A stretch of 64,000 nucleotides of DNA, from assembly GCA_030390025.1 (NCBI GenBank), contig CM059432.1:87174001-87238000 (forward strand), in the 5' to 3' direction. Position 1 is the first letter of the stretch, and the number at the start of each line of letters is the position of its first letter. The notes under the pieces were generated by a model. That model was not told the DNA's origin. It did no database searches and worked only from the letters and a program-made list of their open reading frames with translations. Origin of the DNA: Squalus acanthias (lineage: Eukaryota). This document shows, piece after piece, positions 7,143 to 56,618 of the stretch. Both the position numbers and the translations under genes were made by a program.

Positions 7143-7210
7143 TGAAATAAAAACTGCTGGAAAACACTCAGCAGGTCAGGCAGCATCTGTGGAGAGAGAA
7201 ACAGAGTTAA
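7143..7210. mobile_element. Penelope-type terminal-repeat fragment
   Basis: gctggaaaacactcagcaggtcaggcagcatctgtggagagagaaacagagttaa; same family as 52267-52508. Confidence 0.65.
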
Positions 7211-7886: not shown

Positions 7887-9266
7887 TTTTGAGTACAGTT
7901 AAACTTCCATTTTCACCTTGATGCAAAGGCGTTTTTGCCATATGCACTGACACAACATGGGAAGTATAATTTGGCAGTCAGGTTGTGATTGAACACGTGA
8001 CTCCCGATTGCACTAAAAAAGATGCAAGACCATTTGTACTATGAGTACGAACACACTATGGGGGAGCTTTTTGTCCCACCCTGATTTGGGGTGCTATTGG
8101 GATAGTAGAGAATGCAAATCCAGTAGAACTACTTTCCACCCGATTTGCACTTGATCTCTGGGTCGGGGTTGTGGGGAGCGACTGAAGCTCTGGCCCAAAG
8201 CATGTGGAAGCCTCAGTAGCATATATAAAAGGGGAAGGGAGCAGTGCCATTTTCTGGCCTAAGGGACGTCAAAGTCTCAAAGTCGGGGACAAGGCCTTGC
8301 AAGCAGGAGGGCATTTAAAAGGCTCACACAATTTAAAGATAAGTGCATAAGGCTATGCAAAGGTCTCTATTGTAGATTTTCTTATTATTTCCAGTTGGAA
8401 CTTAGGCTTTCATAAGCCTGTGGCAGCTGCAGTTAGTTACTTATTTTGCCCCAACCTCCCTCTATTGGCACCAAAGGGTTTTCCATCAGGAATCCTTCGA
8501 GCTGACATGTTTGGAGGTAAAAGGGACCAGCAGAAGGATGCCAGGCAGGTCAGGCTGCCCGACAGGTTCTCTGGCCCAGCCACCTGCACCCCCCACCATA
8601 ACATCTACAGTGAGAGGTAGCATAACTCACTTTGGCAAATATAGTTGGAGGTTCCTCGTCCCAATGATGGCTGTGCCAGCCGATCCCTGGTGGCATCACA
8701 ATGGGATGTGAATGCCAGTCTAAACCATTATGCTAGTAGGTTCTTCTGAAGCAGCCCAATCACAGCAGGTTATGCTTTACATTGTATTGAATGAAAGGCG
8801 GCATGTCAGGGTACTCAGGAGCCAGTGTTGCCTGTTTACCCACACTTGCCAAGATGCCCCCCAACCATTTCCGTGGCCCTAGCAAATCCATCTGAGAATG
8901 AATGTGGTAACCTAGCTTCTCAGAGTCTAGATCAGGAAGATGCTACCATGCAGCAAATAACTTGCTCGTGTGCAGGGGCACCAAGAGTCAGCTGTGTGTG
9001 CATATGGTGGGCGAGGGGGGAGTCTTTATTCCTTCCTCCATGGCCCAGCCAACTCTGGGAAACCTGTATGGAAAAATAAAGGGAAAAAACTGCATCTTAC
9101 CATGTGTGATTTTGCAGTGGTACCAGTGTACTGCACTGTCAAAAGTCCAAAAGGACAGCATGAGAGGTCAGACCAGTTACCTTTTTAGGTTCAGTGCTGT
9201 CAGTCGCACCCACAAGTTGTCTGAGCAGCTTACTTTCTTAGTCGACACACACTATCCTACATCTAC

Positions 9267-9406
9267 AAAAGCAAAATACTGCGGATACTGGAAATCTGAA
9301 ATAAAAACAGAAAATGCTGGAAATACTCAGCAGGTCAGGCAGCATCTGTGGAGCGAGAAAGAGTTAACAAAACGTTAAAACTGTTTCTCTCTTCAACAGA
9401 TGCTGC
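9267..9406. mobile_element. Penelope-type palindromic insertion with the centre deleted
   Basis: Exact 15-bp TSD ctatcctacatctac (9252-9266 / 9407-9421). Inverted arms meet at gagttaacaaaacgttaa. Confidence 0.8.
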
Positions 9407-10944
9407 CTATCCTACATCTACTTGTATGATAGCAAAATCAGAAGTGTAACAATAGTACCCCTCTTGCAACCTGAACCAAATATTCGGATCTTTTGCACAG
9501 GAACTTCTTCTCTCTGAAGGTGAACCAAGCAATCAATCACTTGGTGAGACGGAGTTTGATACAATTTATTAAGGTGCTTTATTTCACTACGAGTAAACAT
9601 ACAGAGCAACAGTTATGATTAGATTCACTTGGTTTTATCAGTACAACTTGTCTTTACGTAATAATACAATTGTGAACACACTGTGATTCACCACATCACT
9701 GGGTCATCTGGCTTGAGTTAAACAAACTGATTTCTCACTACTCTCTCTTGCACTCCAACCTGCTGTAGCCTTTGCTACCTGACTGCCTCACAGCATTCGG
9801 TTTCAGAAACCTAAATGGCTGGATATATCTGTGTTTCGATATTTTCTTCTTGCACTGGCCACAGCCAGAAAACGGATCAAAGGCCTTCCGAAACAATGGG
9901 TGGGCGTTATTTTTCAATTGCCAAGGTAGTTAAAGTATTGCTTATTATTTACAGTCAATGGAGAAACAACGTAAACGCTAGCTCATTGGCATCTTAACTA
10001 CTTATCGTCTCTGTGCCCATTTAAAAAAGAATTTGGGATGGCAATTGGTTATGTCCCATTTTCGGGTTCCTAACTGATGGAATGTGTGCCCCACCAGATG
10101 GCCCAAAATTGGATCTCGGGCCTCATTTCACTAATTTAGGCGTATTGCCGATGTCTATCACGCCTCCAGAGGCAGCTCGCCTATTTGCAATAGTTGAATT
10201 TTGTGTCGCTTGCCTCCCGGCACTCGCCCTCAGATAAGTCCGGGTGTGGGTTGGGAGGGGCCAATTGGGAACCTATTGCAGGCTGGCAGCGGCCCTTAGG
10301 AGTGCTGTGGAGCCGGGAGGAGCAAACCCGCTCCTCCTGGGTCCGCATCAACCGTAAAAGAAAAACCCTACCTTTTTTGGTGGCAGCTGCTTGCTGGGCT
10401 ACATCCATGTCCAGAAAACCTGAGCCGTGCAGGCCCGATGTCTGCACCACTCAGGGCAGCCAAATTTCTGAGAGGGGACCTAAAACTGGTGTTAAGCCCC
10501 TCATTAACATATATAAGGGACCTGACTCCTTTTTAAGTGGCCGCCAGGAACATTGTCCGACCCCAAATTGAGGTATTTGAGGTGCACTTGTGGCGTGGGA
10601 GACAGCACTGTGAAATTGGTGCTTTTGGTCCCCTTTCTGCACCTGAAAAATTTGTGAATACACTATGCTTTGAAAACATTAAAAGTAACTCCTTTTCCAA
10701 ATCCTTTTTGAGCAAAATTGGTTAAAAGATCCTGAAAATGTGACGGTGATCAAGGAGCGAATATTTGAGTAACATGTAGCTGGCATTCAGATAACTGGCA
10801 CACACAGCGTGACTGTAGGAACAAATAATAGTTTTATTCTCAAGCAATTACAGTCAAGAAAACTGTACAGAACAAATAAAGGATCATAAGTTTACAAAGA
10901 ACAGAATTAAAGAATTCTGAATTTCAAAACACCAGAAAAAGACA

Positions 10945-18112: not shown

Positions 18113-18274
18113 AAGACTTGAACAAGGCTGGCTGGTGACATGTGATATGCTCTGGTTATGTCAGGTAACAGGAATTGCTGTAGGATTAGTCTGAATAACC
18201 TTTCTATTTTTCCCTCAGTGGTATTTTACAGGATACTATGGAAAACTAAGTGATATAAAATGATGGATACATAC

Positions 18275-18921
18275 CGACTCTACAATTTCTTCTGTTTCTT
18301 CCACACTAACTCCACGTGATTGAGATTTTGATAGTTTCTTTGGTTCAGGAACAACAATGGATAACTGTTTCTTCAATTTTGGCTCAGATTTAGTTTCTTT
18401 GACAGAAGACCTTGCAGGCATTGGCTTTGGCGGTGGCGGTAACCTTCCGAGTGCCATTGGTGAAGGATTAGCCTGTTCCTCCGGCTCTTCAGGTGGCAGT
18501 TTTACATCTGTGCGCACAAAGTAACTATGGTATGCGCTATGTAACTGGCCATTGCCAGCAGTCGTGGGAGTGTAAACCGCTGGCTTGGGCTGTTTCCACT
18601 CGCTCCCTTGCTTAGTACTTATCTTGGCGGCACTTTTTGATGATGGTCTATTCCCTGAAGCTCCTGATAAATCCTTGTTTACATTGCTGGCAGAGCCTTT
18701 ATTCCAGCTGGTATCTGGAGTTTTCTTGTATATTGGTGGTGAAGGAGGAGGTGTAGGGCCAGGACTATGTCCAGGAGTATGTGGTGGAGTTGTACCTTTT
18801 CTGTAGAAATGAGGACTGCTATTTGCTGAAGATGGTTTCTTTTCTTGTGGAGGTGGAGGCTCTTCTTTCTTCTCTGTATATCCCATTGCCTCCTGCATTC
18901 TCTGTTTAATGTAATCTAGAC
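18275..18921 (-). CDS. JPH1: Junctophilin (JPH1-like) internal coding exon, divergent proline-rich region
   Basis: Translates as (G)LDYIKQRMQEA...SSPHFYRKGTTPP...NGQLHSAYHSYFVRT...KSEPKLKK...EEIVES. SPHFYRKGTTPP and NG.LHS.YH.Y match vertebrate JPH1 as I recall it. Acceptor tttctctag| at 18922-18923 (phase 1); donor |gtatgt at 18273-18274 (phase 0). Confidence 0.9.
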
Positions 18922-23952: not shown

Positions 23953-24051
23953 GATAGCAAAATACTGCGGATGCTGGAAATCTGAAATAACAACAGAAAA
24001 CGCTGGAAAAACTCAGCAGGCCAGGCAGCATCCGTGGAGAGAGAAAGAGAG
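23953..24051. mobile_element. Penelope-type terminal-repeat fragment inserted in CR1
   Basis: 9-bp TSD tagtagttt (23944-23952 / 24052-24060); almost identical to an arm of 52267-52508. Confidence 0.8.
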
Positions 24052-24639
24052 TAGTAGTTTTCCCACCACTGACATTAGACTGATTGCCCTGTAGTTACCA
24101 GGTTTATCCCTCTCTCCTTTTTTGAACAAGGGTGTAACATTTGCAATCCTCCAGTCCTCTGGCAGCACTCCAATCTCCAAGGAGGATTGAAAGATTGTGG
24201 TCAGAGCTTCTGCTATCTCCATCCTAGCTTCCCTTAGCAACCTAGGATGCAACCCATCTGGACCAGGTGACTTGTGCGTACCTATTAGCACCTCCTTTCT
24301 AACTAGTTTTATCCTATCCAATCTCTACTCCTCCCTCGTCTACTCCGACATTAACTTCATCCTCTTCTTTCGTGAAGACAGATGCAAAGTACTCATTCAG
24401 TACCTCAGTCATGCCCTCTGCCTCCACAGGATTTCCTTTAGACATAGTGATCGTCCCCTGACCTCGCAAACTTTGGTAGGGTCAGTGCCAGAGTTCCTGG
24501 GCGAGTGTATTGTGGCACTTATGCCAAGATATTGCTCTTGCAGATTTTCGAGCCTGCTCTTATAGTGACTTATAAGATAGTTTAATGGTATGGAAAAGGT
24601 AAATCAGGATAATTACCATAAACTAAATTATAAGGTACA

Positions 24640-44567: not shown

Positions 44568-45787
44568 CTAAGCGAATCTGGCAGAGATTAGTGCTTCCCT
44601 TGCATCCCGGGCAGCAATGTGCTCGCGTGCTGCTGCAGCTGGCTCATCCGCCTCCGTAAGCTCTTCTTCCTCCTCCTCCTCCTCTTCTGAGGAGGCTATG
44701 TGCTGAGCCACTTATTCCTCAGGCAGCTGCAAGCCACGATGCTGTGCGATGTTGTGCAGTGAACAGCAGACCACGATGATTCTGGAGACCCTGGCTGCTG
44801 AGTACTGTAGGGCTCCATCTGATCTGTCAAGGCATCTGAATCGCATCTTCAGCAAGCCGATAGTTTGCTCGATGATGGATCTGGTCGAAATGTGGCTGGC
44901 ATTGTAGCGTTCCTCAGCTTCTTTCGATGGCCTCCTCAACGGCGTCATCAGCCACGTCTTCAGGGAATAGCTCGTCTCCAAGTAGCCATCCGGAAAGTTG
45001 AGTTGGCAGATTCATGGAAGTCCTTTTGAGTAGACTGCCGCAGGATGAACGAGTCATGACAACTGCCAGGGTACTTCGCGCAAACATGCAAAATGTCCTT
45101 CCTGTGGTTACACACCAGCTACACGTTAAGGGAGTGGAAGCCCTTGCGGTTGACAAAAACAGCTGGGCTGTGATGGGGTGTCCCAAGGGCCACATGTGTG
45201 CAGTCTATGACGCCCTGCACCCTTAGCAAGCCTGCCATATTTGCAAAGCCAACTGCACGCGCGGTTACACTTGCTTGATCCGTGGAGAAGTGTATGTAAT
45301 TGTGCGCCTTTGCAAAGAGGGCATCGGTAACCTGCGTGATGCAAGTGTGTGCGGCCGACTGGGAGATGCCGCTGATGACTGCCGATGAGCCCTGGAAGGA
45401 CCCTGAAGCAAAAAAATTGAGGGCGGTGGTGACTTTGACAGCCACTAGTAAGGAGTGTCCACCCACTCCTCTGGGCTCCAGGTGTTGGTGCAGCATTGCG
45501 TAGATGTCAGCGACTACCTCTTGCGAAAGTCTCAGCCTCCTTTGGCACTACTGCTCAGTCATGTTGAGGAAGGTCATCCTCGGCCTGTAAACCCGGTGTT
45601 GCGGGTATCTCCTGCGGCGACGTGCATCCCTGCGCTGACGCCTTCTTCCCTGTGCACCATCAGGTGGCTGAGCAGGAGGTAGGCGCTCCTGTTGTTGCTG
45701 CTGCTGTTGTGCCTGGTTCTGCTGCTGCTGCGGCTGCTCTTCCTCCGAATCTGAGGACCAGGATGACAGGAAATAAATGGTTCCCAT
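44568..45787 (-). pseudogene. Harbinger (HARBI1-type DDE) transposase pseudogene
   Basis: [79 protein letters not shown]. Contains several stops and frameshifts. Confidence 0.93.
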
Positions 45788-50719: not shown

Positions 50720-52328
50720 TATGTGATTGACTCTTAAGGACTTTTGAAGTTCCCTTAGAAGTTGCTCAGTTGTCCAGGGCAACATGGGATGGGCTATAAA
50801 TGCAGTCCTGTCAGCATTGCCCGCAGCCCGAGAACAAATATAAAAACAATGCCTTGTGGCCACTCACCCTGTTTTCCAGTCTGCCTAATGCCTGGAATCT
50901 GCCTGATGTCCCCTAGCCTTTTTTGCTCTCTAATGTTCACCAGCCTCTCCTTTAGATCTCCTTCTCCACAAGCTTCCTATTGACATATATACATCGGCGT
51001 TGATGTTTTTAGCTTTTTCCCCCCCATCAAGTGTTGCCTTGCACAGGTCAGTTCTCACTCGGCAGAAGTGAACATTCCCAATACAGCAGCAAGAGGCGAT
51101 TCAGGGTCCACAACTGATTTTCTTAGGATGGAGTTCCAGTTGTGATTGAGGACACCACAGACACCCCCATAGGGTACCTTGGATATACTAGCAGAATCAG
51201 CAGTTTAAACAGCCGATTGGTGCACTATAAAACTATACAATCCCCTAAATCACACAAATTAGCCCCCCAAATTATGTTTTTATCCTGCCTTAACACACCA
51301 GAAACTCTTTTGGTACAAAGTAACAGTGTTAAAAAGAACCATGCGGATCATCTGTGAAGAGGCCACCCTCCACACACTACTAGAACTTTGCGGACATCAT
51401 GTTCTAGTAAAACCATTTAAATGGATGACCTCCCTCTAAGATGTTTGACCTCAGTTGATACCCCTCCAAGTGCTTCTATGAGGTATACAAGGGTTGTGCA
51501 CACTTTGGAACATCAATTTCTTTCCCCCCAGGTGAACAGGTGTTCAACGCACCAATGCGCTTCAAACTGTGACATTGATTGAAATCTTGCATTTCTTTAT
51601 TCAGCATTAAATGTGGGAGACCAGTAGAGACAGCGAATGTAGTAAAGGATTTGCAGAAGGACTTGAATTAGTGCAATTGGGCAGCCAAATGGCATATGAA
51701 ATTTCACACCAATAATTGCAAAGTTCTAATATTGGTCAAAAAATGAGAGTCATAAATATACAGTGAATAGAAACGAATTAGCAGAGAAAACTAAGAAAAG
51801 CGGCCTGAAGTGATGGAAGAAAGTCATTCAGAAATGTACAGACAATATGGAGAAACAATTAAAAAGCTGTAGAATGCTGGGACATATAGTAGAGAGAAAC
51901 TGCTAATGCTTTGTGGTGCAATGGTCACACTCCACTTGGAATACAGTCTTTCATTTTGGTCACTACAAACAACATATACATGAGAATCGCAAGCTCCAGT
52001 GTAGAAAGGAGGTTGTTAATAGGGTGCCTCATTGAGGTACGTAGCATATTAAATGGCACACAAAGGATAAACCCAGAATATTCCTTTAAAGTGAGCCAGA
52101 AGAGGACCAGAGGCATCCATTTAAATTAATGAAAAGTAATTTGAAAATAAATACGACAACAAACTTATTTACATTAAGACAAGAAATATTGGGAATAATG
52201 TGCCAGGCAGAGCACTGACAAAAAAATTAATGACATTCAAAATGAAGCTCATTGCTATAATGTGAGAAATAACAACAGAAAACGCGGGAAAAACTCAGCA
52301 GGCCAGGCAGCATCCGTGGAGAGAGAAA

Positions 52329-52371
52329 CAGAGTTAACGTTTCAGGTCGAAGACCTTTCGTCAGAACTCTG
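52329..52371 (-). ncRNA. Minimal type I hammerhead ribozyme motif
   Basis: CAGAGUU-CUGACGA-A-AGGUC-UUC-GACCU-GAAA-CG-UU-AACUCUG: 7-bp stem I, conserved core, 5-bp stem II and a palindromic minimal stem III. Confidence 0.8.
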
Positions 52372-52375
52372 GCGT

Positions 52376-52417
52376 CAGGTTCTGACGAAAGGTCTTCGAC
52401 CTGAAACGTTAACTCTG
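52376..52417 (+). ncRNA. Minimal type I hammerhead ribozyme motif, second copy
   Basis: CAGGUU-CUGACGA-A-AGGUC-UUC-GACCU-GAAA-CG-UU-AACUCUG; stem I has a 1-nt bulge. Confidence 0.72.
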
Positions 52418-52777
52418 TTTCTCTCTCCACGGATGCTGCCTGGCCTGCTGAGTTTTTCCAGCGTTTTCTGTTGTTATTTTGGATTTCCAGCATCCGCAGT
52501 ATTTTACTATTGCTATAATGAGAGAGTTTGGGTGCGAGAGGGATGAGCTTTGGTGGGCCAAATGGCATTTCTCATCCTTGACTTTCAGGCCCTTTCCCTG
52601 CATTTAGTTTACAGATTTTGCAGGTCTTTAATTTTTCTCACTGGAATTAATTGATGCTTTTTGCACTAGCTGGCATTAGGTTATTAATGATGTTCAACAC
52701 TTGTGCCAAAAAACACAATCATGCATTGGTCGATGTATTGTTTGAGTTAGCACAGTTCCAAGTGTCTTTTTATAGTA

Positions 52778-53141
52778 CAGGAAACTCTTTATTAACCGGC
52801 ACCGACGGGACCGGCGTGGTGCCGGTTAATCAAAAAGTCCGGATAACGGAGAGTTATATCTCCCAACGTACGAGAGCCCCGTACACATTGACATGCGCCT
52901 GCATTCGGAGCTCCGTCTCCCCGGGGACCGCCAGCTGACCATCTGTTGTGTCCGCTGCCTACCCGGGCTGCACATTCCCCTCCCAATCTACACGCTCCGA
53001 TACAAGGCAAACGCCTCGGGGTGTTTTTTAAAGTTAATTTTAAACGAGAGATGAAGGAAAACCCCGGTTACCTACTCAAGAATTTTGCCGGTTAAGAGAG
53101 ATTTCCGGATATTTGGGTGCCGGTTAATAAAGAGTTTCCTG
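52778..53141. mobile_element. Tc1/mariner (pogo/Tigger-like) MITE, 364 bp
   Basis: Perfect 26-bp TIR CAGGAAACTCTTTATTAACCGGCACC with TA TSD. Confidence 0.9.
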
Positions 53142-54090
53142 TACATTGCGCAATGCCCCACATCAAGCCATGTTGACATTGAGAGCCTCGGCGCAGCACT
53201 GAACAACACTGATGATAATCTAACGTCAACCAATGTGAAAAGCTTTGACTAGCTGAAAAACATTGACAAAAAAAGTACAAATTTGAAAAATAAGCATAGT
53301 AGGATACGCTGTAGAGGAGGTCTGAATGATTACTGTGCAACAGATTTACAAATTCCAAAGTCTCAACTGATGTTGCATTTTGAAGTGTACAACAATGTCA
53401 AATGTTTCTCCATTTGTAGAAAAAAGGAATGATGGTGAACATGCAACACTTAATATACTGTGTGGGAGGAGGAAACTAGGTGGACATGCACTTGCACATC
53501 CTGATATCAAAAACATCTTATAGTGAACTTCGCCCTTTGGCAGGACCTTCAAACGAGTAGCTTATCTCAAGAGACCGAAATTACTTCATATAATAATAAT
53601 GTGTAGATTCAATGTACAGTAGTTAGTTATTGTAAGTCAGCTATTTATATTGGCAATGTTCCCTGCGCTCCAGGAATCCCGCGCAGCCAGCTTTTCAATA
53701 CAAAAACCGTACATGCACGTTATTTTGAATGGCCCGCACAGCCCCTTAAAGGGGCCGTGCGGCGCCAAACAAAATTAGAGGGAATATTGTTGGCAAGTAT
53801 GTCAAAATAATTGATTAGTGAAAGTGAATGAAAGCTTTCTCTTATACTAACAATGAGCTTTTACCCATGGAGGGATTGGTGACGTTGCACTGTGCTTCTT
53901 CCTAACAAAGGTAATTGAATATAATGAACACTTCAAATATAGGTCCCCAAATTATTCTTGACCTTTGCTCTTATTTAGACTAAATTTCACTGCTGCAGTA
54001 CCAATTTGTTCACAAATATTAGGCTGCATGCAACTCTCAAATATGTAATACTTCCTTAAAACACAATGCCTTCCAGTAAACAAAGTTAAT

Positions 54091-54184: not shown

Positions 54185-54538
54185 CATATTGGTAGTCCAT
54201 GCAGATATAATGATTGGAAAAATTGTTTCAACAAAATAAAACCTGCTAATGTACAAAGGAGCAAGAAACTGAGACAACTTTGCTGGAAGTCTTTGGTCTT
54301 CACTGTGGACTGAAATTTTCATTAAGAATTGTTGCATTTTTAACATTTGACAGTAACACCATTCTTGGGTTGTTAAAAATTTCAATTTCTTTTCTACTTT
54401 TGTACATTTATTGTAGTTTATTTTGCTATAAATACGTTGTACCAATAAGTGTCGCCAAGTCATTCAGTCATAGGTGAACTTTCTAGCAAGGGGTCGCTGT
54501 ATAGCCTGTGAATTTTTCCCTCCCTCCCTTCCCTAGAG

Positions 54539-54942
54539 CAGGGGTTCTCAACCGGGGGTCCACGAGAAGATTTCAAGGGGTCCGCTGCCCCGCAGCTTCT
54601 CCCAACACCATTAATCTAGCCCCAGGATTGGCTCAACTCTTACCGACTGCTGATCGGCAGCCATCACAATCAGCACCATACCAGTCATGTGTTTCGCCTG
54701 ACTTCTCACCACGCTCTCCTGAGCCAGCAATTCATTTACAAAATTCAACTTTAAAACTTAACTGCCGACAATATTTTTAATACATTTTTCACTGTTTAGA
54801 TCCAATAATAAAATGTTGTTTTATGATTGCATGATGTTTGATTTATTACCATTCTCTCCCAACGCTCCTCCACCCCACTCTGGAGGGGGGTGGGGTGGGG
54901 GGGGGTGGGTAGCTTTGGAAACAAAAAGGTTGAGAACCCCTG
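54539..54942. mobile_element. hAT/Charlie MITE, 404 bp
   Basis: Perfect 15-bp TIR CAGGGGTTCTCAACC; exact 8-bp TSD CCCTAGAG. Confidence 0.92.
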
Positions 54943-56618
54943 CCCTAGAGAATTTAGCTCAGTAGGGACAGCATGCTACAATTGGCCTACAACACTGGAT
55001 ACCAGGGATCAAATTTGGGACCTTTCTAGTCTAGAAAGTTCAATACCACATCACACAACTCAGTGATCCAATATGCCTTTATTGATGACATTTTTCTTGG
55101 ACAAGGACAATTCTAGATATATTTTGTCAGAAAAGTTTTGAAGGCGAGGTTAATGCACATCTTAAATTAGAGATAACGATATTTTAAATGTGTGGCCCGT
55201 TTAAAATGGACTGGTAGAGCAGCAGTCAAAATACTTACTCTAGATAACTCTGGATTCATGTTCCAGTTCTGGGTATTTTCAGTTTTAGTCAGGTTCCTAA
55301 AGTAGGAAGTTTTTTTTTTTTTAAAAAGGAGCATAGCACCTCACCTTGGGCTTTTTCAAAAATAGAAATGCTATTCTGCTACTCACCCTAAAAGCAAGCG
55401 CATCTGCTGCTGGCTGAACATAGCATACCATCAGCAGGGTAGCCATGGAGGATCCTGCCAATTCTCCCACTCCAGAAGCTTGAGAAAGATGCATGGAGGT
55501 GACAACCCAAAAGGGGGAACAAATAAGAGTGAAAAAAGATACTGCACAACAAGAAACATGAGGTTTCTCACATGACTGTAGTGGGGCTTAATCTTCAGAT
55601 TTTTATGTTGTGCTGTAAACTATTGTCAATTACCAAAAACAAAATACCAATTTGCCTACTGCAATTTTAAGAAGGACACAACATTAAATCAAACTTAAAC
55701 ATGTGACTGGAGTTTTCTGATGATTTCCAAATACAGAATCCTAATACAAATGATTATAAATGGCAGTTTGCCTCTACAGTGTTTGAGCTCTGAAGTAGAA
55801 ATTGAAATTTAACGGACTGTATTAGAGCGCATTGAAAATGGATTACTATTTGTTTTCAATGGGCACTGTATCAAGCTTGAAAGAGAAAGAATGTACAGCT
55901 GCTGCAGATTCTCACTGAGCTGAACTCTATCGGTTGTAACCTCCCAGATGGCTTCCAACTCTATGGGATTTCAGCTATGTCTCCGCTAGCCGTCATTGAA
56001 GACCTGCACTTGCCTAATATAGTTCAAATTAATGTCACTTCATAATTTGTATGAAGTTTCATCAGCTGTAACTGGTACTATGTCAATTGACAGCAAGTAA
56101 AGGTCACTCTTTCAAAGGTAAAATTATTTAGGGTAATCTCTTGCCATTTTATCATATCAGCTGCCATTTCTTGTTCCAAAATAATAAATCTGTTGATTGC
56201 CTTGGAATCCAAATTGGAACCATTATAGATCTCTTACTTACAGGTTGTAGTTTTCCACAAATATAAATCAGTGGGCCTTTTAACTCATGTAGTCAGTATA
56301 ATTGATATCAAAAAACTTGCTATTTTATATCAGCATCCAAAAGTGAGAGATAACAGCTTTAGGGTATGGAACAGTTCCCTTTTGGATCCAGAGAGACAAA
56401 TGTCAGCTATAAAGCCACTAAACTATGTCCCTCTCTATCACTCCCTACAGTTAAATGCATTTATAATGCATTACTCCTAGAGGTTTCACACTGGATAGAA
56501 TTATACGATGTTATAAGCTAAACATTTACTAGTATAGTGAAGCAGTGTGTTGAGGCATCAATACATTGTGCCATGTAGTAATGGGATGTAGCTTCATGCC
56601 CAAGATCCCCAGACACGC

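Follow-up and report, generated by a model that had tools for sequence, protein, structure and literature searches.

The 242-bp palindrome in the 64,000-nucleotide stretch of DNA analysed here (the window, C8:87174001-87238000, whose positions are used throughout unless a contig is named) is a real, young and ordinary stub insertion of a Penelope-like element (PLE). Taken as a whole, the data leave us confident that it is a recent insertion of the pLTR end of an abundant, coding, Neptune-type PLE in an inverted form already known for such elements, likely made by the element's own protein and likely both immobile and non-cutting. Four parts of this account can be regarded as established, namely membership of a coding family, insertion into an empty site, a unique inner junction and two fixed 3' ends that lie 29 nt apart.

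Two arms of 101 nt, which differ by a single mismatch (at 52286), face each other across an 11-nt spacer, and a 29-nt tail adjoins the right arm (Table 1). The inverted arms, the 16-bp target-site duplication (TSD) and the young retro-insertion described in an earlier note on this DNA are thereby borne out; the note also had the span of the element right (52267-52508), but left the tail within it unnamed. The two TSD copies agree at 15 of 16 positions in the assembly and at all 16 with the reads of runs X1 and X2 (organism A), and around 4 nt following the tail are common to the element end and the TSD. In run X7, which comes from another organism of a related species, one contig joins position 52250 to 52509 and represents the empty site. 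It is short by 258 bp, the sum of the 242-bp palindrome and 16 bp, and shows 17 substitutions in 622 flanking bases. Together, the empty orthologous site and the 16-bp TSD indicate a real and recent insertion. The 11-nt junction has one match in the 3.7-Gb genome even when 2 mismatches are allowed, so the palindrome was made on insertion and not copied as a unit. The mismatches at 52286 and 52521 may be assembly errors or alleles, and the left contigs of runs X1 and X2 stop matching at 52285. No empty allele was seen among the pieces listed for these two runs, which may include the source of the assembly, and run X6 spans only part of the right flank.

Table 1. Features of the focal insertion and the nearest downstream exon of the host gene
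Feature	Position in window	Strand	Remark
Left TSD, 16 bp	52251..52266	.	Present once in the empty site of run X7
Inverted PLE pLTR end (arm positions 1-101), tail absent	52267..52367	-	
Minimal type I hammerhead motif, same strand as the host gene	52329..52371	-	Predicted cut between 52336 and 52335
11-nt junction composed of short matches to the 5' edge of the element itself	52368..52378	.	Genome-unique
Direct PLE pLTR end; in intact copies codes for the RT/GIY-YIG ORF N-terminus	52379..52479	+	
Minimal type I hammerhead motif with a stem I of 4 bp	52378..52414	+	Predicted cut between 52410 and 52411
PLE tail, 29 nt, on one arm only	52480..52508	+	
Right TSD, 16 bp	52509..52524	.	Assembly has A at 52521; runs X1 and X2 have T
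JPH1-like host gene, exon 4	18236..18921	-	Exon number presumed from junctophilin gene structure

The parent of the focal arm is a coding PLE. The arm is identical at 99-101 of its 101 positions to all six of the ORF-linked PLE copies tested, and a genome query with the right arm and tail gave 1641 candidates, the 40 scored having 96-100% identity; several copies run upstream through the 3' UTR into a GIY-YIG ORF. Both the partial-tandem and the tandem pLTR organisation of EN+ PLEs occur in the family. One locus (L073) is a partial tandem of the form pLTR-ORF-pLTR with a 3162-bp unit, and an array (L235/L236, at C4:15.716-15.726 Mb) has a period of 3198-3199 bp, an open frame of 1004 codons and arms identical to the focal arm at 124 of 130 positions. 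The motifs DKG, DVQSLYT, GVAMG and YIDD, a CX4CxxC linker and GIY-YIG are all present in this frame, giving at family level the single ORF of EN+ PLEs, with RT followed by a C-terminal GIY-YIG domain; no more than the first ~40 codons of it are left in the focal copy. Pfam returned RVT_1 (E=2.4e-5) and GIY-YIG (E=6.2e-4) on the 1004-codon frame, both below the curated cut-offs, and GIY-YIG only on broken copies, and among the 120 homologous matches listed many carry RVT_1 and some also GIY-YIG, the nearest of those with a name pointing to a cartilaginous fish as the probable source. A PDB sequence search with the PLE ORFs, including the intact one, gave no match at E<=1. The CX4CxxC linker lies upstream of GIY-YIG, between RT and EN, and a CX2-5CxxC linker in this place is described as common to Neptune and Nematis and absent in Penelope/Poseidon (PMC8557442). 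Judged by this sequence motif, the family is of Neptune/Nematis type as against Poseidon.

The link to a Penelope-like element proposed in the earlier note was therefore correct, the arm being the terminal piece of a coding RT/GIY-YIG PLE, and the genome-wide check that it recommended yielded both this coding partner and a copy number: an exact genome search for the hammerhead core pattern gave 33,022 matches, and none for a reversed control, so that the motif is not a product of chance. Blind stretches contained 41 arm pieces in 580 kb, or ~260,000 genome-wide by extrapolation. The tandem copies of L235/L236 carry an ATG inside the hammerhead core (arm 7), with the predicted cut 26 nt downstream of it in the intact copy, and the focal haplotype has ACG at arm 7 and its next in-frame ATG at arm 55. 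Three more ends of the same family lie in the window (7150-7210, 9264-9408 and 23954-24052), all of them starting at arm 26-34 and hence near the predicted cut site, a place at which starts are not enriched in the larger sample.

The form of the focal insertion recurs across the family, for which 234 arms were reduced to 132 once the focal element, duplicates and matches from queries covering the 5' end had been removed. All 30 long copies end either at arm 127-130 (n=13) or at arm 94-108 (n=17), and these two 3' end classes match a published pair of RT start sites between which the tail lies (PMC11167929). An adjacent inverted arm accompanies 26 of 82 tail-bearing arms; the inner junctions are variable, the inverted arms of these other copies end mostly at arm 99-107, and in most of the 26 pairs the two arms resemble each other more closely than arms from separate copies do. 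TSDs of at least 9 bp were found at 23 of the 26 inverted insertions compared with 7 of 32 solo short ones (p=3e-7), the search at solo copies having used a narrow window without a shuffled control, so that it may undercount; the family range is 9-17 bp. An inverted arm, a direct arm and a tail together are a known, published insertion form, the PLE unit being described as a pLTR with an adjacent inverted 5'-truncated copy and a 30-40-bp tail (PMC8557442), and the focal copy has both the inverted 5'-truncated arm and the tail at one end. The same arrangement is reported for Pen2a_Av (PMC3846280). In the anole Poseidon element (PAc), the tail is the stretch between two internal RT start sites, and RNA downstream of these sites is required (PMC11167929). 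None of the papers listed by literature searches reports shark PLE palindromes.

Two further features of the copies deserve mention as observations in their own right. Some insertions (8 of 30; loci L199:1401-1774 and L204-L233) end 122-156 nt beyond the tail, the one at L199 with a 14-bp TSD, an indication that priming also takes place at other internal sites within the ORF start. Three older inverted copies (L066:4279-4418, L068:5668-5791 and L136:8075-8226) have the same inner junction, arm 54 / arm 18, which may reflect a microhomology hot spot, a duplication or secondary amplification.

From the genomic anatomy we infer the following route for the focal insertion, which was likely made by the RT/GIY-YIG protein of the PLE itself. 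The GIY-YIG domain would make two staggered nicks in the target, ~16 nt apart, one of which would prime reverse transcription at the end of the tail (arm ~130) and the other at arm ~101. Both cDNAs would terminate at the hammerhead's 5' edge, to be joined head to head via the 11-nt templated junction. The occurrence of TSDs with the inverted forms fits such priming from both target nicks. The resulting stub would be a dead end, probably unable to move again, because the RNA that follows the priming sites, on which the anole Poseidon protein depends, is missing from it.

Other origins have to be weighed against this one. The earlier note had taken the palindrome for an ORF-less, self-propagating unit of retrozyme or SINE-like kind, in which case the palindrome or a 130-nt monomer would be remobilised in trans by a PLE protein. 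About a third of the core copies do end no more than 6 nt upstream of the core, a common 5' end that is SINE-like, and tandem retrozymes derived from pLTRs have been described (bioRxiv 10.64898/2026.07.22.740005). Against this, the arm belongs to the end of a coding PLE and its haplotype is common to ORF-linked copies, the junction is present once in 3.7 Gb, the inner junctions differ among the 26 inverted pairs, the focal locus has no head-to-tail array of a short unit, and the stub is without the sequence beyond the priming site that PAc needs (PMC11167929). We consider an origin of this kind very unlikely. A second possibility keeps the PLE origin but has the inverted arm made by fold-back (hairpin-primed) synthesis on one cDNA or an antisense template, with no second nick. 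The greater similarity of arms within pairs would be expected if this were so, the focal spacer is self-complementary and extends the hairpin by 3 bp, and self-priming has been proposed for junction palindromes and favoured for rotifer PLEs (PMC3846280). However, similarity within pairs is also expected from two cDNAs of one template, and fold-back alone accounts neither for the outer end of the inverted arm, fixed near arm 101 while the other arm is tailed, nor for the association of TSDs with inverted forms. We think it unlikely, though it deserves more weight than a self-propagating unit, and we favour the insertion by the PLE's own protein from two target nicks.

The earlier note had drawn attention to the locus through its hammerheads, and the two divergent cores and the minimal type I motif with a palindromic 15.2/16.2 stretch are indeed evident in the sequence. 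The cores, CTGACGA-A-AGGTC-TTC-GACCT-GAAA-CG-TT, start at 52382 (+) and 52364 (-), and have the CUGANGA, GAAA and NUH elements, the extra nucleotide after position 9, the palindromic 15.2-16.2 and the short helix I of minimal hammerhead ribozymes (min-HHRs). Hammerhead motifs number 26 in 704 kb, with none in the reversed control. The conserved G10.1-C11.1 pair is absent, being A-U in the focal copy and A-U or G-U in the family; helix change within the family is limited to this one-sided A-U/G-U exchange. The search with Rfam models that the note advised gave no hammerhead match in 51500-53300 up to E=10, only below-threshold miRNA-hairpin and other weak matches, those to miRNA families (below gathering scores) arising because of the hairpin. 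A second minimal-hammerhead family (L065-L070, L105-L144 and L176-L193) supplies 9 of the 26 motif matches in the 704 kb, and has the core preserved between helices I and II of entirely different sequence (stem I TCAC/GTGA, stem II GGAGC/GCTCC, a GC palindrome, and G-C at 10.1-11.1).

The claim that the better-formed ribozyme lies on the junctophilin strand stands only in part. The minus copy does close a stem I of 7 bp compared with 4 bp in the plus copy, but the outer 3 bp of that stem come from the junction and the native stem I is 4 bp. The flank TCCAGTT/AACTCTG occurs in 43 of 106 parsed cores, and the flank CAGAGTT that gives the 7-bp stem in only one, the focal copy. Genome-wide, 164 of the 33,022 cores have the 7-bp flank, and all 10 of those inspected are insertion boundaries or inversion junctions, on which basis a subfamily with a 7-bp stem I was rejected. 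The 'better' ribozyme motif of the minus strand is thus a junction accident.

This bears on the suggestion that the minus-strand hammerhead cuts the JPH1-like pre-mRNA co-transcriptionally and affects its expression. The core and its GUU triplet are intact, stem I has 7 bp and the motif is on the host sense strand. Since the palindrome is head to head, however, either transcript makes the antisense arm first, and the minus-strand RNA is predicted to fold into a hairpin of -209.6 kcal/mol, compared with -151.8 kcal/mol when the hammerhead helices are forced. The complementary arm that precedes the motif and this difference of 57.8 kcal/mol make cutting of the junctophilin pre-mRNA unlikely. The hairpin was the minimum in all four co-transcriptional prefixes tested, and even the isolated core had an open-core fold probability of 0.005; these energies ignore proteins, which assist cleavage by the PAc hammerhead in vitro (PMC11167929). 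In addition, the monomer has no stem III, a single min-HHR showed no cleavage (PMC4209133), cleavage by the PAc hammerhead needed protein and was dispensable for PAc insertion in vitro (PMC11167929), the pair adjacent to the core is A-U and not the conserved G10.1-C11.1, and the 5' ends of copies are not enriched at the predicted cut site. Cutting of the host RNA is accordingly the least probable of the readings considered here, and we would be surprised by it. The folding does support the note's further point that the 101-bp hairpin competes with, and may silence, the ribozyme fold. The JPH1-like pre-mRNA is predicted to contain a hairpin of ~100 bp rather than an active ribozyme, and intronic double-stranded RNA of this length could be edited.

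The short copies begin at a sharp boundary. Among the arms that start between -100 and +50 (n=82), 40 start at -5..+6 compared with 6.5 expected if starts were uniform (p~1e-22); this interval corresponds to 52373-52384 on the focal plus arm, and both focal arms end at the same hammerhead 5' edge. Genome-wide, the 3' hexamer is kept in 28,444 (86%) of the 33,022 cores and the 5' hexamer in 19,185 (58%), which implies that about a third of cores end at the 5' edge, a fraction that upstream subfamily differences could inflate. None of 21 ORF-bearing copies starts there (p=0.001 on the 17 independent copies that reach the site). Several simple explanations were tried and set aside. There is no significant excess of 5' ends at the predicted cut site, whether this is taken as arm 31-35 (5 of 33; p=0.32) or more widely as arm 28-37 (9 of 33; p=0.33). 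One transcription start common to all templates is disfavoured by the absence of ORF-bearing copies that start there. An alignment artefact from divergent upstream sequence would require native-like sequence upstream, and only 1 of the 40 boundary arms has it (solo ones tested).

The reading that we tentatively prefer, though we give it only a modest chance of being right, is that two RNA templates are in use. A linear, uncut mRNA would begin at the hammerhead 5' edge, 7 nt before the ATG, and internal priming on it with run-off at its end would give about ten thousand stubs of ~100-130 bp as well as the palindromes. A circular or read-through RNA without such a 5' end would give the ORF-bearing tandem and partial-tandem copies. 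Alternatively, the boundary could be a pause at the edge of a folded, protein-bound domain or at a splice-acceptor-like site; a pyrimidine tract that ends in CAG just before the boundary looks to us splice-acceptor-like, and it overlaps what we take to be an Inr-like word. Penelope of D. virilis has an intron whose end is at helix I (PMC4209133), this intron being situated 46 bp downstream of the start site (PMC2377424). None of the papers listed by literature searches reports this 5' boundary. If true, the two-template reading would supply evidence, drawn from genomes, of the circular PLE intermediate that hammerheads are proposed to make, and would explain genomes filled with solo hammerheads. 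The asymmetry at the 5' boundary is the only lead that is worth following, and the family, which is young and has intact tandem masters, offers a good test bed for the role of the hammerhead in PLEs.

The insertion is most likely a neutral intronic passenger in a JPH1-like gene. Junctophilin-1 is the best match (E=6e-79) for an exon located at about C8:87300182-87300970, taken as exon 2, and the next JPH1-like exon, exon 3, starts near C8:87247680, both on the minus strand. Exons 2, 3 and 4, the numbers of which we assume from junctophilin gene structure, all lie on this strand, as the earlier note had assumed, and the focal element falls in the intron between exons 3 and 4 (intron 3), with the donor ~21 kb upstream of it and the acceptor ~33 kb downstream. 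Other elements are found nearby. A MITE-like element at 52775-53144, 250 bp downstream of the focal element, has perfect terminal inverted repeats of 29 bp and is highly repetitive in read depth, whilst another at 54537-54944 is flanked by an 8-bp direct repeat, has short terminal inverted repeats and is hAT-like in its features. An open frame at 45119-45547 (-) resembles a Harbinger-type transposase. In a genome where hammerhead-bearing PLE ends number tens of thousands, the focal locus in itself is minor, serving at most as a lineage marker that is absent in the related species.

Compared with known systems, the focal insertion is closest to the published EN+ PLE unit (PMC8557442), with which it shares an inverted and a direct arm, a tail at one end, a TSD, heavy 5' truncation and a family with tandem and partial-tandem masters. 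It differs in being an extreme case: both arms are cut to ~100-130 bp and the ORF beyond the first ~40 codons is missing, and the tail measures 29 nt against the 30-40 bp described, with a TSD of 16 bp. As in PAc (PMC11167929), the ORF begins within the hammerhead, 26 nt before the predicted cut, a pair of 3' ends delimits the tail, and targets are AT-rich; unlike PAc, the family has a CX4CxxC linker, which is described as absent in Penelope/Poseidon. With the min-HHRs described in PMC4209133, of which there are thousands in vertebrates and for which pairs on opposite strands had already been noted, it shares the CUGANGA core, the extra nucleotide between 9 and 10.1, GAAA, a palindromic 15.2-16.2 without loop 3 and a 4-bp helix I. 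It departs from them in having A10.1-U11.1 (or G-U) instead of G-C and a helix II of 5 bp, and the motif of the focal family, which has no Rfam model match, is a putative ribozyme. The non-LTR retrozymes offer a type I hammerhead, pLTR ancestry and a lack of ORF that are also seen in the focal copy. These are, however, described as head-to-tail tandem repeats that yield circular RNAs (PMC7229834; bioRxiv 10.64898/2026.07.22.740005), whereas the focal element is a single head-to-head insertion between TSDs, with a junction found once and hence no sign of amplification as a unit.
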